Below are positions 578 through 62,701 of a stretch of DNA of 62,859 bases, piece by piece. The notes beneath the pieces were generated by a model. It saw only the letters and a list, made by a program, of their open reading frames with translations, did no database searches and was not told where the DNA came from. The stretch covers positions 1 to 62,859 of IMG/VR virus record IMGVR_UViG_3300025389_001457; one strand, 5' to 3'. This DNA is from a virus (taxonomy: Duplodnaviria > Caudoviricetes). Position numbers and translations under genes: made by a program. Positions within the stretch are counted from its first letter, which is position 1. Each line of letters starts with the position of its first letter.

Positions 578-583
578 GATAAT

Positions 584-1135: not shown

Positions 1136-1138
1136 GCA

Positions 1139-2173: not shown

Positions 2174-2234
2174 CAAAATTACAAAATTAGTATATAAATA
2201 ATTCTTCAAACTGCTATTAATCAAGGAGACTGGC

Positions 2235-2597
2235 ATGAGCAAAACTTGGGGCTACCACCTACTATTAGACTGCACCGCTGGCGATAAGGAACTTATCGGA
2301 TCAAAGGAAAATATCTATAACTTTATCAAGGAACTAGTTGTTGTTATTGACATGACAGCATTTGGCGAACCTTGGATTGAGCGTTTCGCAACGCATGCGG
2401 CAGACAAGGCTGGCTATAGTCTTTGTCAGATGATTGAGACATCAAACATCACTGGTCACTTCTGTGATAATGATGGCAATTTCTATATTGACGTATTCTC
2501 ATGCAAGCCATTTGAAAATGAACTTGTGTTCTCTACTGTGGAAAAGTATTTTAAGCCACAGAAGATTCGTCATCACTATATTTCACGTGATGCTTAA
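2235..2597 (+). CDS. speD: S-adenosylmethionine decarboxylase proenzyme
   Basis: GYHLLLD, IETSNITGH, YIDVFSCK; SD AAGGAG and upstream TAAATA. Confidence 0.85.
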   Translation: MSKTWGYHLLLDCTAGDKELIGSKENIYNFIKELVVVIDMTAFGEPWIERFATHAADKAGYSLCQMIETSNITGHFCDNDGNFYIDVFSCKPFENELVFSTVEKYFKPQKIRHHYISRDA

Positions 2598-2601
2598 TGC
2601 G

Positions 2602-2626
2602 AAGGGGGCTTTTAGCCCCCTTTTTT
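2602..2626. terminator. bidirectional intrinsic terminator
   Basis: AAGGGGGCT-ttt-AGCCCCCTT plus T tract between convergent genes. Confidence 0.8.
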
Positions 2627-4717: not shown

Positions 4718-4732
4718 AGGGTATTTATTGAA

Positions 4733-5359
4733 TTAGTGCTGTGCCTGACTAATTGCTGCGCCAAGTGCTGCACCAATCATAACACCAATAGCAAGTGCGG
4801 CCCCATCATTGCCGCCACCACGATTTGGTTCATAATAACCACGTGGCATTTCACGATGATGACCTCTTTGATACATCATTGCTCTTTGACGTTCCCAATT
4901 TGCTTGGTTCTGCATCTGCATCTGTTGTGCCTGAAATGGCGACATACGCATAAACATGTCATGTGCTTGCGCAGGCGTTGCTTGTGCTAAGCTACTTGCA
5001 ACAGCCAATGCTGCTGCAATCTTAACACTGTTGTTTTTCCAATTACTGCCACCTTTTTTTGCCATTTCAGTTTCAATGGCATCAGCAGCTTCATCACCTT
5101 GTTTAGCACGAACTTGTGCTAATACATTATCAAACTTTTGTGTAATACTTGGTAGGATATTTTTTGCACTACTCTTTACTTTATCAGCAAAGTTTGCAGC
5201 TTTATCTTTTATAGTATCTAAAACGCCTTCATCAAGCTGTTCGCTTTCAACCATTACTCCACGAATCAGTTCTAATACTTCGCTGTCCATGCGATGGTTG
5301 ATTTCAAGTCCTTCAAGGACTAACATTGTATATCTGATATCGTTGTTCATGGTGGGCAA
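4733..5359 (-). CDS. hypothetical membrane-associated protein (internal signal-like segment and C-terminal glycine zipper)
   Basis: QLDEG motif, KIAAALAVASSLAQATPAQA, GAALAIGVMIGAALGAAI. Confidence 0.55.
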   Translation of the reverse strand: MPTMNNDIRYTMLVLEGLEINHRMDSEVLELIRGVMVESEQLDEGVLDTIKDKAANFADKVKSSAKNILPSITQKFDNVLAQVRAKQGDEAADAIETEMAKKGGSNWKNNSVKIAAALAVASSLAQATPAQAHDMFMRMSPFQAQQMQMQNQANWERQRAMMYQRGHHREMPRGYYEPNRGGGNDGAALAIGVMIGAALGAAISQAQH

Positions 5360-5373
5360 TCTCCTACAATTAT

Positions 5374-6588
5374 TTAGGAGATTACTATCGCTGGGAAATA
5401 CTTGATGAACACATCGCCTTTGAAATTACGAACCTTACGAATGCGTCCTACAATCTCGTCAAAGAAGTTCCATGCTAACGGCACAAAGCAAATTTCACGA
5501 TCTGGATATTTTTTAAGTTCATCAATGGTAACAACAGGTATGCTCATGCCTGGCGTATATTTGCCTTGCTTGAGCGGATTATCATCAATAATAAAGTCCA
5601 TATCAATGTTACCAAAGTTGAGTATCGTATTGCCCTTTGCAGGTGCTCCATAACCTACAATCAGCCGCTGGTGAGCCTTACGCTGCCCGTCTAAGACCAT
5701 AGAAAGGTCATTGACTGTGCGTCTTGCACCATCTGCCCATGCTTGATAAGTTGTGTAATCATGTAGCCCTTGAATACGTTCCCAATCAAGATATGAGGAT
5801 ATACGAGCAGGACTGTGCTGGTCCGTTGAGAACACAAAGATATTACTGCCACCATGAATAGTGCCTTTGAACACATCAATCATGTTTAGGCCAACGCTAT
5901 TAGCAAGTGTATATAAACTTTTCACACTAAAGAAGTTACGATGTTCATGATAAATGGTATCAAATTCATTATTCTGAATCATATCACTCTGCGAATTTTG
6001 AATAAACAACAGCGTGTTAGGATTCATAATATTGCGACACAATTTTAAAAATGTCTCTGGATCATCCTGATGCGCAAATACATTTTGTGCGTAAATGATA
6101 TCGGGTGTCTTGCCTACTTTGAGTAGTGCTTCTGGTGTCAAGAAATCACAAATAATCTTATGATTTTTAGAAGAGATTGGATAGATGTTTTCAGCAGGAT
6201 CAATGCCAATGGTTTCTAATCCATGCTTCTTAAAATAGTTTAGCTGGGTGCCATCATTGCAGCCAATTTCTAAAACTTTACGAGGCTTGACATCTGGAAA
6301 ATATTCCATGACAAAATCTGCAAACCATGCAAAATAATTCTGCATAGTGAGACTAGTGCCACTGACATAAAGATAATTCTTAAATATAATATTTGCATCC
6401 ACTGCATGCGTTAATTGTAGATGCGAACAGTCGCCGCAATAATTAACCGCAAGTGGATAAGTGTTTTCAGGCTCCGCAACCGTTGCCTTGAAACTATTGG
6501 CAAGCGGTTGGGAACCTAAGTCTAGCGTAAGTTTAAGGTTATGATTGCCGCAGCATAAGCAACGGCGTAGAGGTTTGCAATCGGTCAT
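5374..6588 (-). CDS. NDP-sugar C-methyltransferase (Zn-binding, SAM-dependent)
   Basis: CLCCG..LDLG.QPLAN, EIGCNDG, FDTIYHEH, HGGS, YGAPAKG, DDNPLKQG. Confidence 0.9.
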   Translation of the reverse strand: MTDCKPLRRCLCCGNHNLKLTLDLGSQPLANSFKATVAEPENTYPLAVNYCGDCSHLQLTHAVDANIIFKNYLYVSGTSLTMQNYFAWFADFVMEYFPDVKPRKVLEIGCNDGTQLNYFKKHGLETIGIDPAENIYPISSKNHKIICDFLTPEALLKVGKTPDIIYAQNVFAHQDDPETFLKLCRNIMNPNTLLFIQNSQSDMIQNNEFDTIYHEHRNFFSVKSLYTLANSVGLNMIDVFKGTIHGGSNIFVFSTDQHSPARISSYLDWERIQGLHDYTTYQAWADGARRTVNDLSMVLDGQRKAHQRLIVGYGAPAKGNTILNFGNIDMDFIIDDNPLKQGKYTPGMSIPVVTIDELKKYPDREICFVPLAWNFFDEIVGRIRKVRNFKGDVFIKYFPAIVIS

Positions 6589-17534: not shown

Positions 17535-17589
17535 TATTGATTGACTTTCTCTACAAATATGTTATATTTAAGTCAATAAATATTTGAGC

Positions 17590-18048
17590 ATGAAAATGAA
17601 TGAGATAATCCTAGAAGCAGGCGGTCAGCCAATTTACTATTTTGCATACGGTATGCTAACCGATCCTGGTATTATGAGTGATGCTAAGTTTATTGGGCGC
17701 GGGCAGTTACAAAATTATAAGTTTGAATTTTATAAGTTTGCCGATGTTATAGAAACCGCTGGCTCGCATGTTGATGGTGTCCTATGGGAACTTCCAGATG
17801 AAGCCATGCTGCGCTATCTTGACCATATTGAAAGCTATCCAAATATGTATGGTAGGAAGATTGTCCCAATCTTTGTGGGCGGTCAAAAGTATGAAGCATG
17901 GGTTTATTATATGACGCCATCTACTCGTGAATGGGCAGGCAGAGACCGCCGCCCTAGTGATTCCTATGTTACAACCATCGTAAATGGCTATAAACATGCT
18001 GGAATTACCACAAATCAGGTCGGAAAAGCCTATAAAGAAATTGCTTGA
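17590..18048 (+). CDS. gamma-glutamylcyclotransferase (GGCT/AIG2-like) with CTS-like N-terminus
   Basis: MKMNEIILEA, YFAYG, V.GVLW, LD..E.YP..Y, PS..Y. Confidence 0.85.
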   Translation: MKMNEIILEAGGQPIYYFAYGMLTDPGIMSDAKFIGRGQLQNYKFEFYKFADVIETAGSHVDGVLWELPDEAMLRYLDHIESYPNMYGRKIVPIFVGGQKYEAWVYYMTPSTREWAGRDRRPSDSYVTTIVNGYKHAGITTNQVGKAYKEIA

Positions 18049-27860: not shown

Positions 27861-28208
27861 ATGCAAGCAGTAACCCTAACAGAAGCAGCAAGAACTCATA
27901 TTCGCAATGTATTGACTAAAATGGACAAACCATATCTTGTATTTGGGCTTAAGGGTGGTGGTTGCGCAGGTTTTGAATATTTTTGGGAACCTGCTGACGA
28001 TGAATTGTATGCGCAGAATGGCACACCACACCTTGATGAAATGATTAGTGTAGGCGAAGGCAAGAGTCTAATCGTAGATGGCAGTGGCTTAATGTATCTA
28101 CTTGGTAGCGAAATAGATTATAAAAGCGACTTTGTAAGTAGCCAATTGGTTGTCAATAATCCGATGGCCAAAAGTAGTTGCGGTTGCGGAACATCAATTA
28201 GTGTCTAA
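27861..28208 (+). CDS. iscA: Fe-S cluster A-type carrier (IscA/HesB family)
   Basis: GGGCAG, NP.A..SCGCG.S. Confidence 0.9.
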   Translation: MQAVTLTEAARTHIRNVLTKMDKPYLVFGLKGGGCAGFEYFWEPADDELYAQNGTPHLDEMISVGEGKSLIVDGSGLMYLLGSEIDYKSDFVSSQLVVNNPMAKSSCGCGTSISV

Positions 28209-45615: not shown

Positions 45616-47856
45616 ATGGCAAATTCATTTAATAGTAACAGTGACTTAGAAAAAATCGTAAAGTTTGCAAAACAATTTGCAAGCGAAAACAATCATCAAT
45701 ATTTTACCGTAGAGCATTTATTGCTTTCTATGCTACATGAAAAAAGTTTTATTTCTGTGCTAGAAACTATTGGCGTTGATGTTCAACAATTAGTTAAAGA
45801 AGTTGAAGATTATATTTTTGAAAATGTACCAGTTAATACAGCAAACACTGTAGAACCTAAAAAAACACAAATTATTGAACGAGTTTTTAATCGTGCTTTT
45901 ACTCAAGTAATTTTACTTGGTCGCAATACAATTCATATCAGTGATTTATATCTTTCTATTTCTAAAGAAACACATAGTCACGCTGCTTACTTTTTGAACA
46001 AATATGGTGTAGAACCAGAAAAAGTTATTGAAGCATATAACAAAAATAAAAATAAAAAATCAAGTAGTTATGCTACAAATACCTTAGAAGAATACTGCAT
46101 TAATTTAAATGAAAATGCACGTAATGGAAAAATTGAGCAATTAATTGGTCGCGAAAGCGAACTTGCTGATATGACACAAATTCTTGCTCGTAAGAATAAG
46201 TGCAATGTGTTACTTGTCGGTGATGCCGGTGTCGGTAAAACAGCGATTGCAGAAGGTCTTGCTCTTAACATTGTTAATGGCGATGTGCCTAAATTTCTAA
46301 AAAATCATGAAGTTTATAGCTTAAACATTGGTTCGCTATTAGCTGGCACAAAATATCGTGGTGATTTTGAAGAACGCTTACAAGAAATTATGAATGCTGC
46401 TACTGAACTTGGCAACATTATTTTGTTTATTGACGAAGCACATCAGATGCGAGGCGCTGGCAGCGGCAGTAATAGCAGTGTAGATTTTTCCAACATGTTA
46501 AAACCAGCACTTGCTCGTGGTGATTTTAAAGTTATTGCTTCTACTACATGGGAAGAATATACACAACATTTTGAAAAAGACCGTGCGCTTATGCGTCGTT
46601 TTAATCGTGTGAGTGTCGATGAACCTAGTGTTGCCGATACCAAGACTATTCTTCTAGGTATTAAGAGCAGCTATGAAACATTTCATAACGTTAAAATTAC
46701 TGATGCAGCAATTACAGAAGCTGTAGAATTAAGTGCGCGCTATCAAGCAGATAAAAAACTGCCAGATAAAGCTATTGATCTAATAGATAGTGCCGCTGCT
46801 CTTCGCCGCACACAGTCACGTGGCTCTCGTACAATTGACGTTAATCATATTCGTCGTGAATTAAGTCGTATTACTAAAATTCCTGAATCACAATTGGGCG
46901 CAGAAAATACACAAAAGATTATGCCCAACATCGGCGCTGAAATCAAAGCAGTTGTATATAATCAAGATACAGCCGTCGATAAGGTTCTTGATCGTGTATG
47001 GGTATCCCAAGCAGGATTAAAAGCTGATAACAAACCAGTTGGTTCATTCCTGTTCCTTGGACCCACTGGAACAGGTAAAACCGAACTTGCTAAACAATTA
47101 GCTGATCGGTTGAGCATGAAGTTACTGCGCTTTGATATGAGTGAATATCAAGAGCGTCATTCTATCTCACGCCTTATTGGTGCGCCACCAGGCTATGTTG
47201 GTTATGAAGATGCTAACCTTGCTGGTGGTTTGTTGATTAGTGAGATTGCCAAGAATCCACATTGTATTATTCTTTTTGACGAGATTGAAAAAGCACATCC
47301 TGATGTATCACAGGTGTTGCTGCAAGTTATGGACGAAGGTTTCATTACTGGTACCAATGGCAAACGTGCTGATTGCCGCCAATCTATCCTTATCATGACA
47401 AGTAATTTGGGTGCTGCTGATAGCGAACGCAATGTTATTGGATTTGGCGGTGGAACAAATGTGGATGCAGTTGATGCTGCTGTTAAAGAATTCTTCCGTC
47501 CAGAGTTCCGCAATCGTGTAGATGCGATTGTTACATTCAACAAACTTGATAACGTTACAATTCGCAAGGTTGCAGAAAAGTTTATTCGTGATCTAAATGA
47601 ACAATTATTATTAAAGAATACATCCGTATCACTCACTGATGCTGCATGGGATTGGCTGTGTAAAAAAGGCTATACTCCAAGTCTTGGCGCACGACCAATG
47701 CATCGTACAATTCATGAACATATCAAAGTTCCGTTAGCAAAGAAAATACTGTTTGACAAGACAGCAAATCATGCTATTATTAAGGTAGACTTAATTGATG
47801 ATAAGTTAGAATTGGTAGCGCAAGATGACAGAGATAACGGAACTAACCTTAATTGA
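45616..47856 (+). CDS. clpA: ATP-dependent Clp protease ATP-binding subunit ClpA
   Basis: Two AAA modules (GDAGVGKT, GPTGTGKT), KYRGDFEER, PPGYVG, IGF loop. Confidence 0.93.
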   Translation: MANSFNSNSDLEKIVKFAKQFASENNHQYFTVEHLLLSMLHEKSFISVLETIGVDVQQLVKEVEDYIFENVPVNTANTVEPKKTQIIERVFNRAFTQVILLGRNTIHISDLYLSISKETHSHAAYFLNKYGVEPEKVIEAYNKNKNKKSSSYATNTLEEYCINLNENARNGKIEQLIGRESELADMTQILARKNKCNVLLVGDAGVGKTAIAEGLALNIVNGDVPKFLKNHEVYSLNIGSLLAGTKYRGDFEERLQEIMNAATELGNIILFIDEAHQMRGAGSGSNSSVDFSNMLKPALARGDFKVIASTTWEEYTQHFEKDRALMRRFNRVSVDEPSVADTKTILLGIKSSYETFHNVKITDAAITEAVELSARYQADKKLPDKAIDLIDSAAALRRTQSRGSRTIDVNHIRRELSRITKIPESQLGAENTQKIMPNIGAEIKAVVYNQDTAVDKVLDRVWVSQAGLKADNKPVGSFLFLGPTGTGKTELAKQLADRLSMKLLRFDMSEYQERHSISRLIGAPPGYVGYEDANLAGGLLISEIAKNPHCIILFDEIEKAHPDVSQVLLQVMDEGFITGTNGKRADCRQSILIMTSNLGAADSERNVIGFGGGTNVDAVDAAVKEFFRPEFRNRVDAIVTFNKLDNVTIRKVAEKFIRDLNEQLLLKNTSVSLTDAAWDWLCKKGYTPSLGARPMHRTIHEHIKVPLAKKILFDKTANHAIIKVDLIDDKLELVAQDDRDNGTNLN

Positions 47857-50790: not shown

Positions 50791-50797
50791 ATATTTG

Positions 50798-51925
50798 ATG
50801 TTCATTAATCAGATTATCAGCGAAGCGCCTAAAGTTGGTCGTGCTTTTCAGCACGTAGAAGACCTTGTTCTCATTGAAGGTAGCATGGGCGCTGAAAAAG
50901 CTATTAATCGACTCGCCCAAATTGCAAGCAATCCACAAACCGTGCGTTGGAAATGGGATGGCAAACCTCAAGTCTATTGGGGACGTGAGCCAGATGGTAA
51001 ATTTATTATGGTTGGTCACAATGGTTGGCTAAAACCAGATGGCAGCGGTAAAAGCCAAAGCCCACAAGAATTAGTACGTTTTATCATGAGCACTGGTAAA
51101 GTAGAAGCGGGCAAAGAAGACGAACGCATGCGGTTTGCCAACGAATACGCAAGTTTATGGTCATTGTTTGAAGCTGCAACTCCACAAGATTTTCGTGGCT
51201 ATGTATATGGTGATTTGTTGTTTATGCGCAGACCACCACTAGAAAATAATGCATATACTTTTACACCAAATAATGTAACATATAGCATACCTGCTTCAAC
51301 AGAACTTGGGCAACGAATATCAAAAGCAACTGCAGCAGTCGTAGGACATGCATACTTTCCACAATTTGGCATGGGCGATGACCAACAACAACCTATTGAT
51401 GATTTTACACCATTTAATAAGTCACAAGGCTTGATTGTATTGGGTCCGCGATATGCACAGCAGCCTGTTAAGATTGACACTAAGAAATTGCAAGATTTAC
51501 AAAAATATGTTGCAGCAAATAAAAGCGCAATAGATAATTTCTTGAACGATGAGCGCCTCGCTGCTATGAAAATGGCAAGCTTTAAGGGTGTGCTTTATAA
51601 TTTTAATAATCAAATGGCAAGAGTTGGCAGAACAAGTGATCTTGCAAGCGAATTTACAAATTGGATAAGCAGCGGTAGCAAACAAAATGCAACAATGCAG
51701 CAGAAGATAAAGGATTGGATTGCGCAAAACCAAAAAGGGTTTATTGCTACATTTGCAGTTCTTGAGAACCTACGCAATATTAAAAATGCAATCATTGATC
51801 AATTAGATAGTGAAGGCGGCGATATACAACAAACTACCAAGGGACAAAAGGGCGGAGAAGGTTATGTCAATTATGGCGAACCTAACATTAAACTTGTGCC
51901 TCGTCATCGCTGGACACCAAATTAA
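50798..51925 (+). CDS. ligase-like nucleotidyltransferase with CTS-like N-terminus
   Basis: MFINQIISEA; HVEDL; KWDG (motif I-like), GDLLF, EGYV...K (motif IV/V-like). Confidence 0.6.
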   Translation: MFINQIISEAPKVGRAFQHVEDLVLIEGSMGAEKAINRLAQIASNPQTVRWKWDGKPQVYWGREPDGKFIMVGHNGWLKPDGSGKSQSPQELVRFIMSTGKVEAGKEDERMRFANEYASLWSLFEAATPQDFRGYVYGDLLFMRRPPLENNAYTFTPNNVTYSIPASTELGQRISKATAAVVGHAYFPQFGMGDDQQQPIDDFTPFNKSQGLIVLGPRYAQQPVKIDTKKLQDLQKYVAANKSAIDNFLNDERLAAMKMASFKGVLYNFNNQMARVGRTSDLASEFTNWISSGSKQNATMQQKIKDWIAQNQKGFIATFAVLENLRNIKNAIIDQLDSEGGDIQQTTKGQKGGEGYVNYGEPNIKLVPRHRWTPN

Positions 51926-51939
51926 TACCTATTGACATA

Positions 51940-51960
51940 CCAGATAAATATTTTATCTGG
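51940..51960 (+). promoter_or_regulatory. hairpin containing late promoter TAAATA
   Basis: CCAGATAAA-tat-TTTATCTGG, 8 nt before the ATG. Confidence 0.6.
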
Positions 51961-51968
51961 ATTGTATA

Positions 51969-54900
51969 ATGACCCTAAGCCACCGCACTATCTTTAATGA
52001 AGCACCAAATCCTCATGTTGCATTTGCATTTGGGCGCATGAATCCGCCGCATTTTGGTCACGAAGGGCTTATTAAAACCCTACAAAGTGTAGCAAAAAAA
52101 GGCAGTTGGGCGTTATTTCTAAGTAAAAGCCAAGATGCCAAAAAGAATCCACTTAACTATGAACAAAAAGTTAAATGGGTTAAAGCACTTTATCCACAAA
52201 CACAAGGACATCTCGTTGAAGAACCATCAATCAAAACATTCCTACAAGCAGCCGCATATCTTTATGACAAAGGTTTCCGCAGTGCCACTTTTGTGGCTGG
52301 CGAAGACGACATGGCAAGTATGCGACCAGTATTGGAACAATACAACGGCAAGCAAGTAACACATGGTTTCTATCATTTTGAGCCGCTTTCTTTTATGGAA
52401 AGCCCACGATTAACCTCCGCGACAAATGCACGTGAAGCAGCCAAAAGCGGCGATCCAGAAGCATTTGAACGTGCTACACGTGTGCCACCAAATATCACAG
52501 TAGATGGCAAGACACTTATGCAAGCAGTTCGCATTGGTATGGGACTTGGTGAAAGTGTTGAAGAAAGTATCATCACTGAAAGTTTATCAGTAGAACAACT
52601 TGCTCACATAAGTGATAAAGCACTTGATGACGCTTATCATTATGGGTTATCTACACCTAACAATAACTTTGGTTGGTTGGCAAATATTGAAAGTGCCACT
52701 GCTGCAAAGCGTATGATTGATAGTGGCATTACAGATGTAGAAGCCATTGCCAACGCTATCCACGATGGTTGGAATAAAACTGCTATGGCTGATTATATGG
52801 GCAAGTTGCAGCTAGATACGCCAACCATTCCCGATAAGAAAAAGAAGCGTTATGCTCTTGCCCAACAAACTTATGCACAGTTGCCAGAAGTAGAAAAAGA
52901 AAAAGACCGTGTAGTTGCTCGTGCTATGTTGAAGGCAATGGGTATCGTTACCGAAGCACCAGGCATTGGTGGCGATTGGGGTGATAATCCTAAACTAGTC
53001 AAACGTGGTCGCAAACCATATGAACCCAATAAGGATGATACCTATTACGGCTCTGCCCACGGCACAGACCTTGATTTATATGGTTTGCCAAAATATGAAT
53101 TAGATGAAGACCTAACTCCTGACCAATGGGCAGAGTTGCGCATTACTGATCCAAAAGCCTATATGGGTAATAAGGATTATACTAATCGTCGTTGGTGGAC
53201 TCTGCAGTTTAAGAAGGCTCGTGCTGCTGCCCGTGATCAAGGTGCTAATCGTTTTGAGTTTCCGCCAGGTTCTAAGAACAGTTATATGGTTGCTCCTGAC
53301 TTGGCAAATGAAAATTTAGATGAAGCCGCAGAAAAATCAACCAAAGCCGAAGCCAAGTATCAGGCAATGCCTCGCAATGGTCAGCGTTGTGATTACTGCA
53401 CTATGTGGCGTCCTCCGCATGGTTGTTCGGCTGTTAGTGGCAAGATTGCGGCAAATGGTTGGTGTTCATATTACAAGCGTAGTCATCGTAAAGATTTAGA
53501 TGAAACTATTGAACCAAATAGCAATATGTTAGCAATAGCACAACGTCTCGAAGATTATGCTAATGAACATATTCCACACGAAGACGATGGTTTTGGTGAT
53601 TTTATGTATCACGCAGAACTTATTCGCAAAGGTCATCTTGACATACATCGTGAAGATATGGTGAAGGTTCAACCACGCTATCTTCCGATTATGAAATCTA
53701 TCACAAAGAATGAATTAGTATCAGAATCACAACTTGACGAAGCAGCATCACCAGTGTTGTTCCATTATACAGGCAGTGTGGGTGCAGCATTAAACATTCT
53801 TAAAAACAATGAGTTTATGTTGAGCATTTCTACTGGTAGTGTAGAAGACCAATATGCACCACGTGGTTATAACTATTTCTTATCCACAACACGCAGCAAA
53901 GTAGGTGGATATCACGAGTTTACTGGCGGCACTGCTGTTATGTTCAACCTTGATGGCAATTGGTTCAATCGTCGCTATCCAGTTAAAGCAATTGACTATT
54001 GGGCAGGATTTGATAAGCAAAAGCACAGCGAAAGCGAAGACCGTGTATTCTCACGTGAGCCAACTATACCAGCAGATGCGATTACAGCAGTTCATATCTT
54101 ACTTAAAGAAGCAGGTGAGTTTGCAAGTCCAACTACTCGCCAGTTGATGATTGTAGCAAAGAAGCGTGGATTACCAACCTATCTTTACAGTGATGAAAAT
54201 GCGTGGAAATTACAGGACACCAAGCGAGCAATACCAGTAAGCAAAGCCCAAGATTTAATTCGTGGTCAAAAGAAGACTGGTTATATAAGCACCTTTAATG
54301 GTAAGAAATATCTTGCTCCTTGGTTAGAACTTATCTTTAAGAAGAAACGCAGTGAGTTATCCAAAGAAGCAAATAAACTGCGTTATAGTTTAACCTATTG
54401 GAGCGGTGGTCAGTTTGCTGATGACCTTGGGTTACGTAATGAAATTACCAATGCTCGCAAACCAGGCAACAGTGGCTATGAAGCAGCAACTAAAATTATT
54501 GCAGCAATGCGCAAAATCGGTGCCAATGATGTAAAAGGTTTGCTGACATTCTTGCACAAGAAGTGGGATGCAGAAGCACAACAGCCACTTAAAAGCGACA
54601 ATGATGCACAACGAGCAATTGCTAATATTCGTGCCGATAGTGCTAAAAAAGAAAGTGTTGAAGAAGCACTTGATCCAAATGAAACACACGGTTGGATTTT
54701 GCCTAATCGCAAAGTTGAATATGTTACGAAGGAAGAACATCTGGGATGGCTTTATAGTAAAGACATTGATGGATATGAAGAAGCATTTAAACTTGGATAT
54801 GTGCGTTTTGCAAAAGCAACCGTTTCGTTTTTTGTTCAAGGTTTCTTGCCTGACCTTAAAAAGATGTATCGTGTATATGCACAAACTGCACTTGGATTTA

Positions 54901-55169
54901 AGCATATTGCAGTTGATATAATAGTTGATGAGCGAGGCAGAATTGATAACCAAATTTCATTAGACTACGAAATGCCAAAAGACAAAGCAAAGTTTATAAA
55001 GAAATTTGGACCGCAACAAAATGAACACGCTGGTTCTATCATAGGAACTGTTGGTGGCGGCAATGATTATCCTGACCGTCAAGTAGCTACATTTCCGTGG
55101 GACCGTGAGGTTGAACCAGATGAAAATGGCGCAAAAGTACAGTATCTGAATAAACAACGCAAACTTTAA
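51969..55169 (+). CDS. multidomain polyprotein: HIGH-type nucleotidyltransferase, RyR-like, HiPIP-like, ART-like and other modules
   Basis: FGRMNPPHFGH; IHDGW..Y.QLPE.EKEKDR; YQ.....QRC..C......C..V.G.I...GWC; FHYT..STT..ESE; modules joined by [ILV]xE linkers. Confidence 0.75.
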   Translation: MTLSHRTIFNEAPNPHVAFAFGRMNPPHFGHEGLIKTLQSVAKKGSWALFLSKSQDAKKNPLNYEQKVKWVKALYPQTQGHLVEEPSIKTFLQAAAYLYDKGFRSATFVAGEDDMASMRPVLEQYNGKQVTHGFYHFEPLSFMESPRLTSATNAREAAKSGDPEAFERATRVPPNITVDGKTLMQAVRIGMGLGESVEESIITESLSVEQLAHISDKALDDAYHYGLSTPNNNFGWLANIESATAAKRMIDSGITDVEAIANAIHDGWNKTAMADYMGKLQLDTPTIPDKKKKRYALAQQTYAQLPEVEKEKDRVVARAMLKAMGIVTEAPGIGGDWGDNPKLVKRGRKPYEPNKDDTYYGSAHGTDLDLYGLPKYELDEDLTPDQWAELRITDPKAYMGNKDYTNRRWWTLQFKKARAAARDQGANRFEFPPGSKNSYMVAPDLANENLDEAAEKSTKAEAKYQAMPRNGQRCDYCTMWRPPHGCSAVSGKIAANGWCSYYKRSHRKDLDETIEPNSNMLAIAQRLEDYANEHIPHEDDGFGDFMYHAELIRKGHLDIHREDMVKVQPRYLPIMKSITKNELVSESQLDEAASPVLFHYTGSVGAALNILKNNEFMLSISTGSVEDQYAPRGYNYFLSTTRSKVGGYHEFTGGTAVMFNLDGNWFNRRYPVKAIDYWAGFDKQKHSESEDRVFSREPTIPADAITAVHILLKEAGEFASPTTRQLMIVAKKRGLPTYLYSDENAWKLQDTKRAIPVSKAQDLIRGQKKTGYISTFNGKKYLAPWLELIFKKKRSELSKEANKLRYSLTYWSGGQFADDLGLRNEITNARKPGNSGYEAATKIIAAMRKIGANDVKGLLTFLHKKWDAEAQQPLKSDNDAQRAIANIRADSAKKESVEEALDPNETHGWILPNRKVEYVTKEEHLGWLYSKDIDGYEEAFKLGYVRFAKATVSFFVQGFLPDLKKMYRVYAQTALGFKHIAVDIIVDERGRIDNQISLDYEMPKDKAKFIKKFGPQQNEHAGSIIGTVGGGNDYPDRQVATFPWDREVEPDENGAKVQYLNKQRKL

Positions 55170-55186
55170 AAACGGTAAATATATAA

Positions 55187-58100
55187 ATGAGCGACAAAGA
55201 CCTGATACTTGAAGAAATCCTAAATGAAGTGAATATGAGTCCGTCAGCCCTTCGTGCGGCAGTGGCAAAGATTCCCAATGCCAAGGCAGGTCTTGAATTT
55301 GAACTTATCGTCACTAATCTTGAAGAAGAGGAAGATGATGATTATGATCCATATGAGGACTTTGAATCCGAACCAGACTATGACCAAGATGAGCGTATCT
55401 CTACCGCAAGTTTCAACGCACTAGCACAAGATGTTATGCAGTTCTTTAATGGTGATCACAATAGTCGCCGTGATGTAAACCGTGCGATTGATTTGATGCG
55501 TGAAGCGTGGAGTGATTATATTGAAGGTCCGCTATGGGATAATTATACTAGCGCCCGTATTCAAGATTTTATTGACCAACGCTATGGTCGTGATTATGCT
55601 AATCAAGCAGAGTTATTTAAAGAAATTGATACGATTGATCCATATGAAGAGTTTAAATCACGATATTTCCAAACTTGGGTAGATAATCTTGAAGATGATG
55701 ATAACATAGATGATTATCTTGAACAATTTTTAGAAGACAACTATGGTGGTCAATATATGAGTAATTTGGCAAGTGATAGCAGTCTTGGGCTATCTTGGCC
55801 AGTTTGGACTGAACCTGATTATTATGACCGCAGAACTCGCTCTACTGTTGATGTAGGTGATTTCCGCCGTGCTGTTGGTATGAAGACTATCAAGAGCGGC
55901 TCTTATCACGGTATTACAAAGCCAAATGATGCTTATGTTATTGAACCAGATAGCAGCTTACAACCCACTCGTGGTAAAGGTGGCGAAGGTTTAGAGTTTG
56001 TATCACCACCGCTAGATATTCCAACAATGATTGACCAAATCAATAAGGTCAAGGCGTGGGCAAAAGATGGCAATGCTTATACCAATGATAAAACTGGTCT
56101 GCATATGAACATCTCTATACTAGGTTATAAGTTAGATAAACTTGATTATGTTAAACTTGCGTTATTTTTAGGCGACAAGTATATTCTTGAAAAGTTTGGT
56201 CGTCTTGGCAACTCTTATGCTCGCAGTGCATTTGAACAGATTGCTTCATTCATTAAACAAAATCCAGAAAAGGCTAATAAAGCCGTTGATGCGATGCGTC
56301 AGAATTTAAACCTAGTAGCATCCAAACTTATTCATAGCGGTTATACTAACAAGTTTACAAGTATCAATACAAAAGATAATCGTGTAGAGTTCCGTTCTCC
56401 AGGCGGCAACTGGCTTGATATGGATACTGATGAAGTAGTGAATACGCTGCTTCGTGTTGTATATGCAATGAACATTGCTCTTGACCCAGAAGCAGAACGC
56501 AAAGAGTATCAAAAGAAATTTTCAAAGCTACTTACTGCTGATAAGAAAGATGAAACTGATACTATCAAGTATTTCACACAATTTGCAACAGGTAATATGC
56601 CTCGTTCTGCACTTATAAGTTTTGTTAAAACAGCGCAAAGCAAGCGTGATTTTGCAAAGAAAGCAAAAGCAGAAAAACCAAATGATCCGTATGCTAAACA
56701 ACAGGGCGATGATACACCGTATGTTGATTATACAGGTATGGCTGGCATTACATTCCAAATTATTAGTCGTGTAACTGGCGAAGAATTAGAATCATTCGTA
56801 GTATCACCAAGACTAACTTATAGTGATGTATATGATATTGCCACACGTAAAGTGCGAGCAAGTGGTCGTTCATTTGACCTAGTAGCGTTAAAAGATACTC
56901 GTGACGGTGAAGTAAGTGATATTCTAACACGTGAGCCAATACACAACACTGTATCCCCATCAACACCATCCATACAACCAATGTATGTTATCCGCAGAGC
57001 AAACACACAACAGGCTGTATCACAGTTTCGTGCGCCAGATAATGAGCAAGCACGTGATATTGCTACACGTATGGCACGTGAATATGGTTATCGTGATAGT
57101 GATTGGTTTTTATCCCTTGCAAGTGATGATACAAATAGACCAATACCTGGTGCGGGTACACAAGCATTACAATTGCCCAGTGGTGGTGCAGCAACCTATG
57201 TTGTTGTAAACCGTAGCGATGGCACAGAATTATTAACAACACAAGCACAAAGTTTTTACGCAGCAACGCAAGCAGCCCAAAGATTTGCGCAAGAACGTAG
57301 TCTACCATTAGCAAGTATTGCTATAAGATCACCAAACAACAATAATCTATGGGATACGCAAGGTCAACTAATTCCTCAACCAAGCCCACAACCAGAACAA
57401 CCTCGCCAATATACACAAGCAGAAATTGATCGTGGTTATGATATTACGGGCAATGCTATTCCAGCAAACGCAACAGCAACATCTTCTAACATTACTGCAA
57501 CCGAAGGTGTAAAATACCAAATCATTGCCAGAGGTGGCGTAGTCCACGAGTTCCGTGCAGCATCACCTCGTGGTGCTGAACGCTATGCTGAATCTTGGTC
57601 AAATGAACATCTTGGTGATGAGAGTTATGAAGTTCAACTTGCTCCACGCAGCGAAAGTATTGAAGAAAGTATCCTAAATGAAATCAATATGAGTCCTACA
57701 TCTCTTGAAAAATTTGCCGATACACCATTTGCCAAGAGTATGAAAGTTGGTTTTGAAACTGAAATGTATATTCCTGGTCTTGGCGGCGAAGAAGGCGAAG
57801 AGGAAGAAGAAGAGGATATGGATGCCAACGAAGAGTTTCCAAGCAGTGCATCCTATCGTGATCGTCAGCGTGATGTTATGAACTTCTTTAGTGGCAATTA
57901 CAATACTCGCCGTGATGTCGAAAGTGCGTTAGATGCGTTATATGAAGCATTTAGTGAATATCAGTATGAAACCTATGATAATGAATTTGAAGGCACTGAT
58001 GATTACAATGACGCAGTTCAAGAAGAATTAGGCGATACGCCTATGGGCGAAGCAAGTGAGCGAGAACTTGATGATGCCAAAGATAATGTTCGCACCGCTT

Positions 58101-60013
58101 GGATAGAAAACAACGAAGAATATACTTGGGGTAGATTCATAAGTCGCAATGGCATTGATGATATGTATGACTTTATGCGTTGGGTAAATCGCAATACTCG
58201 TGAATCGCTATCTTGGCCATATTATACATTTAGCAGCAGTAGAGAAGAACCAACAACAGATATTGGCGATGTTGTTGATGATTTTAGACGCAATACTGGT
58301 TATAAGGCACGAGCAAGCAGTGGTTATCATGGAGCAGATCGTGATGAAACCACTTGGATATTTGAACCAGATAGTTCGCTAGATAGCCCAAGCAACGATG
58401 GCGACGGTGGCATTGAACTTGTATCACCACCTATGAACCTAGAAGATGGTTTGGCTGCGTTAGAGAATGTATTCAGTTGGGCAAAGAGCAATGATTATTA
58501 TACTAACCGCACAACTGGTTTCCATATTGGCGTGTCTATTCCACTACAAACAATGGAAAACATTGACCATCTTAAAGTAATCATGTTGCTTGGCGATGAA
58601 TATGTATTAAAAGCATTTGGTCGTGCTGGCTCACGTTGGACCAAGAGTAGTTTTGACCAAGCCAAACGTGAAGTGCGTGGCAGAGCAGCCCGAAAGAATG
58701 TGCCAGCAATCCTTGACAAGATGCGTGGTGGATTGCAAGATATTGCTAAACAAGAAATCAACAAACTGTTGGTTCCTCGTGGCGACCGCTATGTTAGCGT
58801 AAACATCAAGCCAAATTATATTGAGTTCCGCAGTGCTGGTGGCAATTACTTTGAGCAATATGAAGAAATCCGCAAGACCATGTTGCGTTATGTTCGTGTT
58901 ATGGCAGCAGCGGCTGATCCAGAAGATGCAAGCAGAGAATATCAAAAGAAACTGTATAAGTTTGTAAGTGCTGGTATAGGTGAAAAAGACAATACTATGC
59001 AGCTATTCGCCAAGTATACTGCTGGCGCTATTGACAAAGAACAACTTGTTAAAGAATTACGCACTGCCCAAGAGCGTCGTAAGCCTGTTGCACCACTTGG
59101 GTCTGGTCCAGTTGATGGTTTCCTAGAAGATGAAAACGGTGATCAAGTTGTAAAGATCAAGGGAACAAACCCATATGAAATGATTGAACTTGGTGTGAAG
59201 TTTGCTAACACTCGTCAGATACCATTGGGTGATACAAACCTACGTTATCCTGGTTACAGTATGGTTCGTGTGCAATATTATTCTACACACCAAACTGAAA
59301 AGGATAGTGTAACACTGGTTTATATACCTGCTGTTGATTTATACAATACGTATAGTAGTGAAATAACAAAAACCGCTGTTCCTGTTGCAGAAAAACATTG
59401 GGGTTTAAGTAAATTACCAATAGAACGTTTTGCTGTGAGAGTGCTAGACGAGTATTCGCTACAATATATGCGTGATGAAATGATGCGCATTACGTCTCGT
59501 GGTGAAGATCGTGCGCCAACACCACCACAAGCACAAGCACAGGCACAAGCCGCACCAGATAGCGATGATGAGGGCAGACAAGTTAGATATATCTTGAAAT
59601 ATACATCTAACGGCAACGAACTTACTAACTTTTCTACAAGTAGTCCAAGTCAAGCAAAAATATATAGTAATAATTTGGTAAGAAATAACAGTCAACTTCG
59701 CTGGGGCGGAACATTTGGCGGTGTTCGTGGTGTTGTATTGTTTAGAGTTGATCCAGATACCCAAGAACAAGAATTGTTCTACATGGGTCCAGGCGAGGCT
59801 ATTGTAAATCAACCTGCTGCTGAACCTGCGCCAGCATCTAGACCTAACGTTGCAAATCCAGGTGGTCGTGGAACTTATGCTTTATTTGTTCAAAATGGGA
59901 CGCAGATATCCGAAGAATTAGAATTTAATTCGTATCAAGATGCGCTGCGCCATTTCACACCGCTGGCGAATAGTTCAGGTTTCACAGGTTGGAGCGTAAA
60001 GCAACTATCATAA
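55187..60013 (+). CDS. tandem double amidoligase (COOH-NH2 ligase-like) with small repeated domains
   Basis: Twice: G.E.E, EPDSSL, G.E.VSPP, TG.H, EFRS.GG; ILNE[VI]NMSP opens each half. Confidence 0.8.
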   Translation: MSDKDLILEEILNEVNMSPSALRAAVAKIPNAKAGLEFELIVTNLEEEEDDDYDPYEDFESEPDYDQDERISTASFNALAQDVMQFFNGDHNSRRDVNRAIDLMREAWSDYIEGPLWDNYTSARIQDFIDQRYGRDYANQAELFKEIDTIDPYEEFKSRYFQTWVDNLEDDDNIDDYLEQFLEDNYGGQYMSNLASDSSLGLSWPVWTEPDYYDRRTRSTVDVGDFRRAVGMKTIKSGSYHGITKPNDAYVIEPDSSLQPTRGKGGEGLEFVSPPLDIPTMIDQINKVKAWAKDGNAYTNDKTGLHMNISILGYKLDKLDYVKLALFLGDKYILEKFGRLGNSYARSAFEQIASFIKQNPEKANKAVDAMRQNLNLVASKLIHSGYTNKFTSINTKDNRVEFRSPGGNWLDMDTDEVVNTLLRVVYAMNIALDPEAERKEYQKKFSKLLTADKKDETDTIKYFTQFATGNMPRSALISFVKTAQSKRDFAKKAKAEKPNDPYAKQQGDDTPYVDYTGMAGITFQIISRVTGEELESFVVSPRLTYSDVYDIATRKVRASGRSFDLVALKDTRDGEVSDILTREPIHNTVSPSTPSIQPMYVIRRANTQQAVSQFRAPDNEQARDIATRMAREYGYRDSDWFLSLASDDTNRPIPGAGTQALQLPSGGAATYVVVNRSDGTELLTTQAQSFYAATQAAQRFAQERSLPLASIAIRSPNNNNLWDTQGQLIPQPSPQPEQPRQYTQAEIDRGYDITGNAIPANATATSSNITATEGVKYQIIARGGVVHEFRAASPRGAERYAESWSNEHLGDESYEVQLAPRSESIEESILNEINMSPTSLEKFADTPFAKSMKVGFETEMYIPGLGGEEGEEEEEEDMDANEEFPSSASYRDRQRDVMNFFSGNYNTRRDVESALDALYEAFSEYQYETYDNEFEGTDDYNDAVQEELGDTPMGEASERELDDAKDNVRTAWIENNEEYTWGRFISRNGIDDMYDFMRWVNRNTRESLSWPYYTFSSSREEPTTDIGDVVDDFRRNTGYKARASSGYHGADRDETTWIFEPDSSLDSPSNDGDGGIELVSPPMNLEDGLAALENVFSWAKSNDYYTNRTTGFHIGVSIPLQTMENIDHLKVIMLLGDEYVLKAFGRAGSRWTKSSFDQAKREVRGRAARKNVPAILDKMRGGLQDIAKQEINKLLVPRGDRYVSVNIKPNYIEFRSAGGNYFEQYEEIRKTMLRYVRVMAAAADPEDASREYQKKLYKFVSAGIGEKDNTMQLFAKYTAGAIDKEQLVKELRTAQERRKPVAPLGSGPVDGFLEDENGDQVVKIKGTNPYEMIELGVKFANTRQIPLGDTNLRYPGYSMVRVQYYSTHQTEKDSVTLVYIPAVDLYNTYSSEITKTAVPVAEKHWGLSKLPIERFAVRVLDEYSLQYMRDEMMRITSRGEDRAPTPPQAQAQAQAAPDSDDEGRQVRYILKYTSNGNELTNFSTSSPSQAKIYSNNLVRNNSQLRWGGTFGGVRGVVLFRVDPDTQEQELFYMGPGEAIVNQPAAEPAPASRPNVANPGGRGTYALFVQNGTQISEELEFNSYQDALRHFTPLANSSGFTGWSVKQLS

Positions 60014-60055: not shown

Positions 60056-60622
60056 ATGAAAATTAATATTATGTTACAAGCAACGTATTGCAATAATCGT
60101 TGGCCACAATTAAAAATATACAATAATGGAATTGTGTTAGATGATTATCTTTGCAATCAAACCCATATAATTTTAGAATATGATGTTGTAACAAAACAAG
60201 ATAATCAATTAAAATTAGAATTTTATAATAAATGCTTTGGTGATGGTGGCATATGGGATGTTAGTAATAGCGGCGAGATGAAATTAAAGTTAGTTGATTT
60301 GGCATTTGATGATGTTTCAATTGATCATTTAATTCATACATTAGAATATGAAACCAATTGGACACCAAACCAATTAATATATGAACCACAAGAAAGTATT
60401 AAAAATTATAGTAAGTATTGTAGCAATGGAATAATGTCATTTAATGGGTGTTTCATTTTTGAATACTCTATGCCAATTTATAATTTTTTGATTAATAAAA
60501 AATATAAAAAGCAATACAATTCTAATTTAGCGTATTTTAGTAATTATACAGAATCTTTTCACTATGAAACAGGCATAGATAAAATTGCAGAGATTAGAAA
60601 GATAATTAAAACGCATGACTAA
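60056..60622 (+). CDS. hypothetical protein (paralog of 50311)
   Basis: WP.L.I..N, NK, FNG.....Y..P.Y; coupled to a radical SAM gene. Confidence 0.65.
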   Translation: MKINIMLQATYCNNRWPQLKIYNNGIVLDDYLCNQTHIILEYDVVTKQDNQLKLEFYNKCFGDGGIWDVSNSGEMKLKLVDLAFDDVSIDHLIHTLEYETNWTPNQLIYEPQESIKNYSKYCSNGIMSFNGCFIFEYSMPIYNFLINKKYKKQYNSNLAYFSNYTESFHYETGIDKIAEIRKIIKTHD

Positions 60623-62108
60623 TATTTTAGTTTTATCAATTCCAAGAATAGAACCACATAGACCGCCGTTGGGTGTATCTATCTTAGGAACTGTATGTGA
60701 AAATGCTGGTCATAATGTTACAGTAGCAGATTTAAATATAAAATTTTTCAATCATTGTAAAACACACGGAGTTGATTACTTTAATTTTGATGACATATGG
60801 GATTCATATCGTGAAGAAACGCTTGCAGAATCAAAATTTATTGACCAATTTATTGTACAATTTATAAATGATTATAATCTTAATTCTTATGATTATATTA
60901 TGCTTAGTATTTTTGGCATCAGTAATCATATTTTTGCTGAAAAATTATTAGAAAAAATAGCACCAAATCGTAATTATAAAATATTAGTGGGTGGAAGCGG
61001 TGCTTTTATTTCTCTAAAAAATTCAAATAGTATAGTTGTTGATAATTTTAAAAGCAGAAATTTAATAGATGATTATATTCGTGGCGAATGCGAAGAGTCA
61101 GTGCTGCAATATTTGCAGCATGGCAATGGCAGTGGAATTAATAACAGCAATTTCAAACAAATTTCTAATCTTGACTCTTTGCCTATACTCAGTTACAAAT
61201 TTTTAAATCTTGATGAATATGATTATTTGAATAATAAAAAGAGTGTTTATATAGAAGGCAGTCGTGGTTGTGTCCGTAGCTGTACATACTGTGATGTTGT
61301 AGCTTATTGGCCAAAATATAGATTTCGTAGCGGAAAGCATATTGCAAGCGAAATTATAAAACATTACGAAACACATGGCGTAACTGATTTTTATTTTACT
61401 GATAGTTTAGTAAATGGCAGTCTAAAAGCATTTTCAGAAATGTGTAATGTGCTTGCCAATCATAATTTTACTGATAAAATTAGTTGGAGCGGACAATTTA
61501 TTTTTAGAGATCGACGTAGTGTGCAGCCTGAACACTTTGAAATGATTGCCAAAGCTGGTGGTGATACTTTTTTTGTTGGAATTGAAACAGGCAGTGATCG
61601 CGTTCGCAAGGCAATGGGTAAAAATTTTTCTAATGATGATATTGAATATCAATTAGAACAATTTCATAAAAATAAACTTAAAACAACTTTCTTAATGTTT
61701 CCTGGTTATGTTACAGAAACCATTGAGGATCATAATGATACACTTAATATGTTACAAAGATGGCAAAAGTATGTTGCTAACGGTGTCATCAATGGTTTAG
61801 AACTTGGTTCGCCACTTGTTTTCCTAGAAAATAGTCCGCTTGCTCACATGATAGATGAATATAAAATTAAATTTTTAGAACTTGATAATATTTCAAACAA
61901 AAGATTTTGGATAAGAGAAGATGATCCAGAATATAATTTTATTACTCGTGTCGAGCGACAACTTGAGTTATATGAAGAAGCTGTAAAATATAACTGGCCG
62001 ATTTGGAGATTTACAAGTAGAGCAGAATCTCTACTAAATTCTGTAAAAACATATTATAAAAACATCGAAAATAACGCAGAATATAAAAAATTACCTGTGA
62101 TAAATTAA
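60615..62108 (+). CDS. B12-binding-type radical SAM protein
   Basis: PPLG, GG, GE.E, SRGCVRSCTYC, FTDSLVNG, GIETGS, GY.TET.ED. Confidence 0.88.
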   Translation: MTNILVLSIPRIEPHRPPLGVSILGTVCENAGHNVTVADLNIKFFNHCKTHGVDYFNFDDIWDSYREETLAESKFIDQFIVQFINDYNLNSYDYIMLSIFGISNHIFAEKLLEKIAPNRNYKILVGGSGAFISLKNSNSIVVDNFKSRNLIDDYIRGECEESVLQYLQHGNGSGINNSNFKQISNLDSLPILSYKFLNLDEYDYLNNKKSVYIEGSRGCVRSCTYCDVVAYWPKYRFRSGKHIASEIIKHYETHGVTDFYFTDSLVNGSLKAFSEMCNVLANHNFTDKISWSGQFIFRDRRSVQPEHFEMIAKAGGDTFFVGIETGSDRVRKAMGKNFSNDDIEYQLEQFHKNKLKTTFLMFPGYVTETIEDHNDTLNMLQRWQKYVANGVINGLELGSPLVFLENSPLAHMIDEYKIKFLELDNISNKRFWIREDDPEYNFITRVERQLELYEEAVKYNWPIWRFTSRAESLLNSVKTYYKNIENNAEYKKLPVIN

Positions 62109-62170
62109 ACTTGACTTTGTATTCAACTATGTTATAATAAAATATGACAAAATTACGGATAAATAATTTC

Positions 62171-62701
62171 ATGCGTATAGATGAAGTCGTAAAGACTGAA
62201 TTCAAGGTCTATTTGGATATGGATGGCGTACTTGCTGATTTTTTTGGCGAGTGGGCTAGACTTGACGGAAAAGACCATTATAAAGATATTGATAATCCAG
62301 AAGCAAAGCTACAACTTGTGCGAGATCATCCTACATTTTGGATAGACCTTCCCTTACTTCCTCATGCAAGGGAACTTGTTCGCACTGTCAAAGAAACATT
62401 TGGTGAATATTACATTTGTTCAACTCCACTTGCTGGCGATACTCGTAGCGAAAGTGGCAAACGTGCTTGGATTAGCATGCATTTTAGCGATATGTTGCCA
62501 AGTGGAATTGAATTAACACACAATAAAGCACAGTTTGCAACAAATGAACGTGGCGTTTCAAACATTCTTGTTGATGATTATGGTAAAAATATAGCTGCTT
62601 GGCAAATGGCTGGCGGTATTGGTATAAAATACGAAGATCAAAATTTCTCCCAAGTTAAAAAAACCTTAATTAGGTTTGCTAAAATGGGAGCACTAGCATG
62701 A
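62171..62701 (+). CDS. 5'(3')-deoxyribonucleotidase (HAD) with CTS-like N-terminus
   Basis: MRIDEVVKTE; YLDMDGVLADF, K..W, ILVDD..KN...W...GG.GI. Confidence 0.85.
   Translation: MRIDEVVKTEFKVYLDMDGVLADFFGEWARLDGKDHYKDIDNPEAKLQLVRDHPTFWIDLPLLPHARELVRTVKETFGEYYICSTPLAGDTRSESGKRAWISMHFSDMLPSGIELTHNKAQFATNERGVSNILVDDYGKNIAAWQMAGGIGIKYEDQNFSQVKKTLIRFAKMGALA

Follow-up and report, generated by a model that had tools for sequence, protein, structure and literature searches.

Known systems and the present locus

Within the T-even phages the ipI locus is hypervariable. The internal proteins of T4 (IPI, IPII, IPIII and Alt) begin with leaders of 7–19 residues that end in hydrophobic-x-Glu, are cut after this Glu, often before Ala, include an ADP-ribosyltransferase (ART), namely Alt, and are ejected with the DNA (PMC9026906). 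Leaders of 10–19 residues direct this cargo to the prohead core (PMC9026906), the capsid targeting sequence (CTS) of T4 being MKTYQEFIAE (PMC8442874). The protease gp21 cleaves after L/I-X-E, as first observed at a Glu-Ala bond; leader positions 8 and 10 control processing, and Asp in place of the junction Glu stops it (PMC9026906). Here we analyse a gene at 51969..55169 (+ strand) of the viral record IMGVR_UViG_3300025389_001457, a stretch of 62,859 nucleotides (62.9 kb) that we refer to as the window. Its 1066-residue product, which we will call the polyprotein, has a leader resembling these in length and in its hydrophobic-x-Glu end, a similar preference at its predicted junctions, an ART-fold module and a gp21-family protease in its lineage. 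However, while T4 cargo is made from separate genes with their own leaders and is cut once or at both ends, about nine modules here share one open reading frame (ORF) and one leader, with the site repeated at every junction and with Phe at the P3 position of the leader. Judging from sequence, we think it probable that this protein is a head-packaged precursor of T4-type internal proteins, cut in trans by the prohead protease.

Three other systems invite comparison. In the very large phages phiKZ, 201phi2-1 and SPN3US many head and ejection proteins are likewise cleaved by gp175/gp245 behind a Glu within short motifs, in some cases more than once (PMC9026906), and phiKZ-type giant phages have redundant propeptide sites (PMC9026906, PMC10052503). 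As described in these sources, however, the multiple cuts remove long propeptides instead of setting free several unrelated enzymes with folds of their own, and neither the protease family nor the motif is that of T4. Another comparison is with the polyvalent proteins of phages and conjugative elements (Iyer et al. 2017, PMC5512222), large proteins with 2–15 unrelated domains, ARTs among them, for which entry along with the DNA and processing to individual units were proposed. The polyprotein similarly combines several unrelated effector-type domains: a nucleotidyltransferase (NTase), a HiPIP domain, an ART fold and two or more other folded domains. Processing of polyvalent proteins is assigned in that paper to an in-cis metallopeptidase (MPTase) domain, a peptidase domain of this sort being frequent though not universal in the family, whereas the polyprotein has sites for a trans-acting prohead protease. 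It contains no HExxH motif, and no peptidase family was matched in it by a Pfam and PHROG search. The main text of PMC5512222 does not use the terms RyR, HiPIP or amidoligase. Finally, the polyproteins that RNA viruses of eukaryotes make are also single products cut at short conserved junctions by a viral protease to give functional proteins, but this is an analogy only: the protease is unrelated, and here the genome is double-stranded DNA, the proposed site of processing is the capsid interior and what is released would serve as cargo, not as replication machinery. The T4 leaders with gp21 processing, the multi-site cleavage of phiKZ-type head proteins and the polyvalent-protein concept are thus already known; what appears to be new is that internal proteins of the T4 type are strung together in a single ORF that retains the trans-protease site wherever two of them meet. 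We found no prior description of a prohead-protease-cleaved phage polyprotein in the literature, subscription journals and supplements being outside reach.

The window is a piece of a large T4-like phage and encodes a clamp loader, RnlA-type RNA ligase, PhoH, MazG, baseplate-wedge-like and virion proteins, spanins and a holin. Contigs bearing relatives of the polyprotein reach 364 kb and a related contig of 111 kb has an estimated completeness of 33%, so genomes of this lineage should measure about 350 kb. A megablast search of the polyprotein gene against cultured phages gave no match. The source is metagenomic and module content varies among relatives, as could be expected if assembly or gene calling had joined separate genes artificially. 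We regard such an artefact as very improbable: the frame is open in the standard code with neither Met nor a stop codon at any junction, and at least seven independently assembled viral contigs (L001–L007) carry an ORF of 1050–1066 residues with 93–95% identity, the nearest protein cluster (P0001) having 13 member sequences, so that the long frame is not an accident of assembly.

Putative cleavage motifs mark the module junctions

The initial annotation, made from the sequence alone, had read the gene as encoding about eight modules separated by acidic linkers that end in a T4-type cleavage motif. All eight [I/L/V/F]-x-E sites that it named are present where it placed them (all on the + strand; a slash marks the predicted bond and the number the P1 Glu): IFNE11/A (last nucleotide 52001), GESVEESIITE204/S (52580), IVTE329/A (52955), YELDE380/D (53108), NENLDE452/A (53324), DLDE512/T (53504), LVSESQLDE591/A (53741) and KESVEE899/A (54665). 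To these we add a ninth junction, QNE1019/H1020 (55025), which lacks the hydrophobic P3 residue (Gln here), while relatives read V-x-E/H. The acidic character of the linkers was borne out in part, since GIVTE329 has no acidic run. The 1066 residues contain 18 [ILVFM]-x-E motifs in total against 16.5 expected from composition, that is, no overall enrichment, and we dropped motif frequency as evidence; placement alone is informative and the claim therefore rests on it. At 12/18 of the motifs the next residue is A, S or T.

The placement of these sites was compared with the module order of homologues. BLASTP alignments of 75 relatives, which differ in the modules inserted, missing or reordered, have breakpoints clustered at residues ~200–206, 325–330, 380–383, 444–452, 513, 580–589, 899 and 1016–1019, coinciding with the seven internal sites named initially plus QNE1019/H1020. 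We then searched the modules singly against 120 listed relatives and kept the alignments starting within six residues of the module start. An [ILVMF]-x-E motif lies within three residues of the predicted junction in 138/150 alignments at internal junctions (25/29 at the module start 205, 14/14 at 330, 14/14 at 381, 21/22 at 453, 1/1 at 513, 31/31 at 592, 13/13 at 900 and 19/26 at 1019), counts that are taken over related sequences rather than independent events and within a generous ±3-residue window. At random positions in the same proteins the motif was found at 13.6% of 24,000. Homologues also keep it at their boundaries when the upstream module is unlike that of the polyprotein (83/88 alignments). 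The HiPIP module, for example, is preceded variously by NKINE, SHIVE, TSIPE, SVNE, KVEE, PVKE or NLDE, and among these NKINE, SHIVE, TSIPE, SVNE and PVKE all come before AEKSTKA. The linkers are otherwise free to vary while the motif positions stay constant, and many hold two sites in tandem, as in ESVEE/SIITE/, VSE/SQLDE/ and EFITE/AILDE/.

A full-length AlphaFold model (62-row alignment, mean predicted local distance difference test score (pLDDT) 65.6) has pLDDT below 50 at residues 1–12, 196–204, 329–382, 424–516, 580–590, 884–899 and 1016–1066, among others. All nine junctions fall inside such segments or within one residue of them and thus outside the folded domains, whereas the seven [ILVFM]-x-E motifs that belong neither to junctions nor to linkers (84, 85, 123, 144, 307, 714 and 988) are in confidently folded parts.

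These patterns bear directly on the idea that the product is an uncleaved multidomain protein of the polyvalent kind, about 120 kDa, which functions in one piece, be it inside the virion or the cytoplasm, with the junctions being relics of leaders or simply a favoured flexible linker. Intact multidomain effectors do exist in phages, as the virion RNA polymerase of N4 is packaged unprocessed (PMC5512222). Leader-bearing genes have evidently fused and split in this lineage (see below), so relic motifs are to be expected, the motif is not enriched overall, and cleavage is a step that we infer. Relics, however, should decay, while the three defining positions of the motif persist down to 27–50% identity as the linkers around them vary; the frequent tandem sites would be left unexplained, and a passive linker would not track the protease in the way that the leader does in cultured phages, as described further below. 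On balance we find the uncleaved alternative rather unlikely.

Stand-alone homologues carry leaders that end at the junction residue

The proposed capsid-targeting or propeptide segment of the polyprotein is its N-terminal leader, MTLSHRTIFNE/A (residues 1–11, 51969..52001, + strand), in a part of the model with pLDDT below 50. An [ILVMF]-x-E motif is found at the start of the NTase module in 74/85 of the relatives whose alignment reaches that start. The leader resembles the T4 CTS (PMC8442874) except for Phe at P3.

The likeness is clearer in homologues that are encoded as separate genes. Stand-alone homologues of the ART-like module are mostly 284–300 residues long, and in 117/120 they have a leader of 8–17 residues whose [ILVMF]-x-E ends exactly at the residue equivalent to the polyprotein junction, the three exceptions being N-terminally truncated. 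Examples are MRAQEFITE/, MRATEFIAE/, MKIAELIVE/AAT and MRLQELLE/AAT. For the domain that we call GGWI (module 8), a search among 1.84 billion proteins gave 26 representatives at E≤0.001, and among the best 24 of these 26 the motif is present at the domain start in 21/24, with stand-alone proteins beginning MRAWQLFE/, MKINEIILNELKE/ or MRYWEIIVE/. The sole stand-alone phage HiPIP protein found begins MKSLDDFLSE/, ending at the junction-equivalent residue (1/1), and two cyanophage cytidyltransferases begin MKTLKFFLE/S and MKKFSDFLSE/A (2/2). Many stand-alone leaders follow the pattern M-R-A-x-E-F-I-x-E, in which EFIxE matches the T4 CTS much better than the polyprotein's own leader does. Since stand-alone leaders end at the junction-equivalent residue, the cut site of the leader and the junction of the polyprotein appear to be one element in two settings.

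An arrangement with the genes side by side is found in the Alishewanella phage vB_AspM_Slicko01 (OQ508956.1, L035), where eight adjacent genes at 375..6045 have leaders of 12–13 residues reading MKIxxLYESxLxE/, and at least four of the eight encode ART-like homologues. The module families and the leader grammar are the same as in the polyprotein, but the genes are separate rather than fused in frame; read from sequence, the Slicko01 array represents the same system in unfused form.

The prohead protease of the lineage

A protease of the expected kind is encoded on a related contig (G001), which also carries a relative of the polyprotein with 85% identity (L010). Its T4-like head gene block (L030, 5604..11554, − strand) contains, in order, genes for the portal, a 74-residue protein, a 277-residue highly acidic protein rich in His, Asp and Met, a Peptidase_S77 (gp21-family) protease (E 2.1e-27), a 365-residue coiled scaffold and a gp23-like capsid protein (E 1.6e-42 to T4 gp23). 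This capsid protein has VLE/N and LAE/N near its N-terminus, just before the conserved mature start. When we looked here for the equivalent of the T4 maturation site, the alignment began past it, with VLE/N and LAE/N as candidates close by.

Cultured phages allowed a comparison of leader and protease. Among eight with an ART-like homologue, three combine a match to the S77 protease family with a leader whose end is L-x-E (Alishewanella Slicko01, E 1.8e-22; Vibrio D484, E 4.0e-98; Salicola SCTP-2, E 9.4e-25), and five have neither (Dickeya JA11, Pseudomonas Lu11, Salmonella Sen-NF, Pseudomonas HRDY3 and Rhizobium RHEph12). The two features therefore agree in 8/8 phages, a small sample in which absence of S77 is scored as no hidden Markov model (HMM) match at E≤0.01. 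The annotation of Lu11 gives no hint on the virion status of its ART-like homologue.

Modules of the polyprotein

Module 1 (residues 12–204; 52002..52580, + strand) is an NMNAT/NaMNAT/PPAT-like NTase with the HIGH signature, as had been recognised from its motifs. It matches the PHROG cytidyltransferase family phrog_3041 (E 9.4e-36) and, under the cut-off, Pfam CTP_transf_like (E 0.0037). Foldseek returned NadM (2qjo, E 7.3e-4) and NaMNAT and PPAT chains (probability 1.00). The fold is Rossmann-like, and the motifs are PPHFGH, in which HFGH corresponds to HxGH, and SATNAR. The module ends in the two-site linker GESVEE/SIITE/S. Module 2 (residues 205–329; 52581..52955, + strand), ending in GIVTE329/A, consists of five helices with pLDDT ~80–90 and is found again, C-terminally, in further NTase proteins (P0039–P0046). 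Its initial description as an RyR-like repeat stands as a weak, possible sequence resemblance: Pfam RyR (PF02026) was matched with E 0.014 and 16 bits against a gathering cut-off of 27.4, and among PDB sequences an RyR1 chimera was matched with E 0.018, a further match being at 0.64.

Two small segments follow. Segment 3 (residues 330–380, APGIGGDW...YELDE380/D; 52956..53108, + strand) is unstructured in the model, and segment 4 (residues 381–452, DLTPDQW...NENLDE452/A; 53109..53324, + strand) is a short module, helical in part at low confidence, that keeps its starting motif in 6/6 relatives with a different upstream module. Module 5 (residues 453–512; 53325..53504, + strand), ending in DLDE512/T, was correctly identified as a HiPIP-type four-Cys iron-sulfur domain. 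Phmmer against solved structures found PioC (6xyv, E 5.6e-10, 49/54 residues, all four Cys aligned), the Pfam HIPIP match reached E 2.2e-4 and 21.9 bits against a cut-off of 22, and the junction motif is present in 20/21 relatives with a different upstream module. The window also encodes an IscA-like Fe-S assembly protein (27861..28208, start MQAVTLTE/A) and two radical-SAM proteins (1139..2173 and 60615..62108), which makes iron-sulfur chemistry something of a theme. Module 6 (residues 513–591; 53505..53741, + strand) is helical (residues 518–577 at pLDDT ~57–72), has no named family, ends in the two-site linker VSE586/SQLDE591/A and is missing in many relatives (for example P0007 and P0013).

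Module 7 (residues 592–899; 53742..54665, + strand), ending in KESVEE899/A, comprises an ART fold (~592–750) and a C-terminal helical domain. Modelled alone with AF2 from 77 sequences it reached pLDDT 90.9. VIA comparison placed it closest to Tpt1 (7yw4, Z 10.8, rmsd 2.2 over 109 aligned residues) and to four DarT chains (Z 8.7–10.0; DarT 7yk3 at Z 10.0), while Foldseek found DarT 7omw (E 2.2e-4, probability 1.00). The ART-like assignment made initially is thus confirmed by fold, and the modelled first ~160 residues are nearest to the nucleic-acid-directed branch of ARTs. Across the 77 sequences H8, S48, E97, E99 and R101 of the module are invariant and T49 and T50 almost so. Module 8 (residues 900–1019; 54666..55025, + strand) is the 'GGWI' domain (GWILP...GYVRF), ending in QNE1019/H. 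It is indeed a distinct unit, a confidently folded alpha/beta domain (pLDDT ~83–90), with no PDB sequence match, no usable Atlas match and no named family. The tail (residues 1020–1066, HAGSIIGTVGGG...FPWDR..., then the stop codon; 55026..55169, + strand) is conserved alone (query residues 1019–1061) in relatives without module 8.

The view of the gene product as a set of unrelated effector modules is fair, but at least three segments (330–380, 381–452 and 1020–1066), which are small and poorly predicted, may be spacers rather than effectors; residues 513–591 are also small, and prediction for these four parts is poor to moderate.

Neighbouring genes and exchange of modules

The gene that follows (55187..60013, + strand) encodes a protein of 1608 residues built on the same plan, with two Amidoligase_2-type modules (Pfam E 5.2e-11, two stretches). 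Its leader is MSDKDLILEEILNE14/VNMSP (product start MSDKDLILEEILNE/VNMSP), and the junction SESIEESILNE832/INMSP stands ahead of the second amidoligase unit. Self-BLAST of this protein found no internal repeat; the two halves were seen through the Pfam stretches and by eye. In seven relatives the tail of the polyprotein runs in frame via ..LDE/VNMSP into the amidoligase module that is the first unit of the 1608-residue protein, whereas in the window this boundary is formed by a stop codon, followed after 17 bases by the start of the next gene. The stop and restart between the two genes thus corresponds to an in-frame junction elsewhere.

Upstream, the gene at 50795..51925 (+ strand) encodes a DUF6267 protein (Pfam E 6.3e-29) with the leader MMFINQIISE10/A. 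This protein shares a match to the family phrog_455 with the NTase module. In P0072–P0079 DUF6267 (PF19782) is fused straight onto the upstream side of this NTase family with no junction motif in between, which suggests that the two work together. The DUF6267 protein has a KWDG motif that looks like motif I of ligases and capping enzymes.

Between the DUF6267 and polyprotein genes there is a 43-base gap with a perfect 9-bp inverted repeat (51941..51961, CCAGATAAA-TAT-TTTATCTGG), 7 bases 5' of the ATG and with no T-run after it. We also considered TATAAATA, the T4 late-promoter consensus: the whole window has 2 copies against 9.2 expected from shuffles, and the one at 50786–50793 abuts the DUF6267 start, too close to serve that gene, so this candidate was dropped and is uninformative on timing. 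Scans of 49000–60700 gave chance levels both for sigma-70 promoters (37 against 38.5 expected) and for terminators (8 against 9.6 expected).

Further genes in the window have similar leaders. Two adjacent ones on the − strand, at 2625..4010, with leader (MGRKK)MRANEFLIE/NILDE/A, and at 3992..4717, with leader MRSREFIVE/SKLLLE/G, encode proteins of unknown family that matched nothing in Pfam or PHROG and whose leaders, canonical and T4-CTS-like, suggest that they are probably further head cargo. A GGACT gamma-glutamyl cyclotransferase (17584..18048, + strand) starts MSMKMNEIILE/AGG. An NT5C deoxyribonucleotidase (62144..62701, + strand) starts ..MRIDE/V, and in polyproteins of other phages (P0051, P0053, P0055 and others) it recurs with 60–66% identity as the module at the C-terminus. 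A ClpA/ClpB-type double AAA+ unfoldase (Clp_N, AAA, AAA_2, ClpB_D2-small) is encoded at 45616..47856 (+ strand); PHROGs label it 'ATP-dependent protease', yet no protease domain was found in it.

With radical SAM, NT5C, GGACT and ClpA/B-like AAA+ proteins around it, the polyprotein has metabolic and auxiliary neighbours, and its NTase and HiPIP, like the amidoligase, look metabolic themselves, unlike classic anti-host effectors. The junctions could then be cut in the cytoplasm by a Glu-specific protease of phage or host, giving equimolar cooperating enzymes late in infection and no head cargo. The AAA+ protein of the window, however, is an unfoldase in which no protease domain was found, and the sole protease of this specificity known in such phages acts inside proheads (PMC9026906). 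The leaders, moreover, closely resemble the T4 CTS, which is a head-targeting signal. We therefore consider cytoplasmic processing improbable.

Weighing the head-precursor reading

Several points weigh against a head-packaged precursor, in addition to the chance-level number of motifs and the limits of the junction counts given above. No prohead protease or capsid gene was found in the 62.9-kb window, so the protease link rests on the related contig and not on the window itself, and in the five cultured phages scored as lacking S77 the absence of an HMM match is not the absence of a protease. The locus is set amid auxiliary and nucleotide-metabolism genes, outside any head-morphogenesis cluster, and the phage is known from metagenomes only. 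The 11-residue leader is conserved, but its P3 is Phe, not Leu or Ile, with Ile at P4. Among the NTase relatives, 11/85 have no motif at the module start, those listed including the DUF6267-NTase fusions. Low pLDDT is no proof of disorder, as the HiPIP module scores ~28 although its family is clearly folded, and the stretch 424–516 is therefore little informative. Some predicted products are very small (51, 47 and 60 residues). Small peptides are lost from the T4 capsid (PMC9026906), and these products might likewise be lost or be mere spacers.

The initial annotation had gone on to suggest a cartridge that is packaged in the prohead, processed there to individual proteins and delivered together with the DNA. 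This idea is supported by the two computational checks that it survived (junction motifs lying outside the modelled folds and kept at the boundaries in homologues), by the leaders resembling the T4 CTS and by the link to S77, and from these we infer cleavage, packaging and ejection, while the folds indicate what the modules may do in the host.

Proposed mechanism and implications

In the mechanism that we propose, the N-terminal leader would bring the entire precursor to the prohead's scaffolding core, in the manner of the T4 CTS. The gp21-family (Peptidase_S77) protease would then cleave behind the Glu in [I/L/V/F]-x-E, both in the leader and at every junction, freeing about nine polypeptides inside the capsid: the NMNAT/PPAT-like NTase, the RyR-like helical domain, the HiPIP, the DarT/Tpt1-like ART-fold protein, the 'GGWI' domain and others. 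The freed modules would stay in the capsid, exit with the DNA at infection and act before phage gene expression, so that a single leader would load many proteins at a fixed ratio. With the junction motif as the sole requirement, a module can be gained or dropped, change its place in the order, become a leader-bearing gene of its own or be fused again, and the relatives show all of these states. As for function, an NMNAT-like enzyme together with a DarT/Tpt1-like ART, the latter recognised from its modelled fold, suggests NAD-linked chemistry on nucleic acids early in infection.

In broader terms, we lean towards the view that in these freshwater phages of ~350 kb the T4 rule of 'leader plus L-x-E' has been turned into a portable junction grammar, by which cargo proteins are strung together, cut and injected jointly, and genes split or fuse at the junctions, shuffling the arsenal. 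If so, a double-stranded DNA phage would be using a trans-cleaved polyprotein strategy, and the T4 paradigm of capsid targeting and gp21 processing would be stretched from single small internal proteins to multi-enzyme precursors with unexpected types of cargo, as indicated by the HiPIP, the NMNAT-like NTase and the amidoligase. For annotation, an [ILV]-x-E/[A/S/G] leader or junction combined with an S77 protease would flag head-delivered proteins among the 'hypothetical' ones of metagenomic phages, and for engineering the polyprotein would offer a natural design for packing several proteins together in T4-type capsids. For the phages themselves, it would mean that huge phages could load many early-acting proteins with one targeting signal and in fixed stoichiometry.

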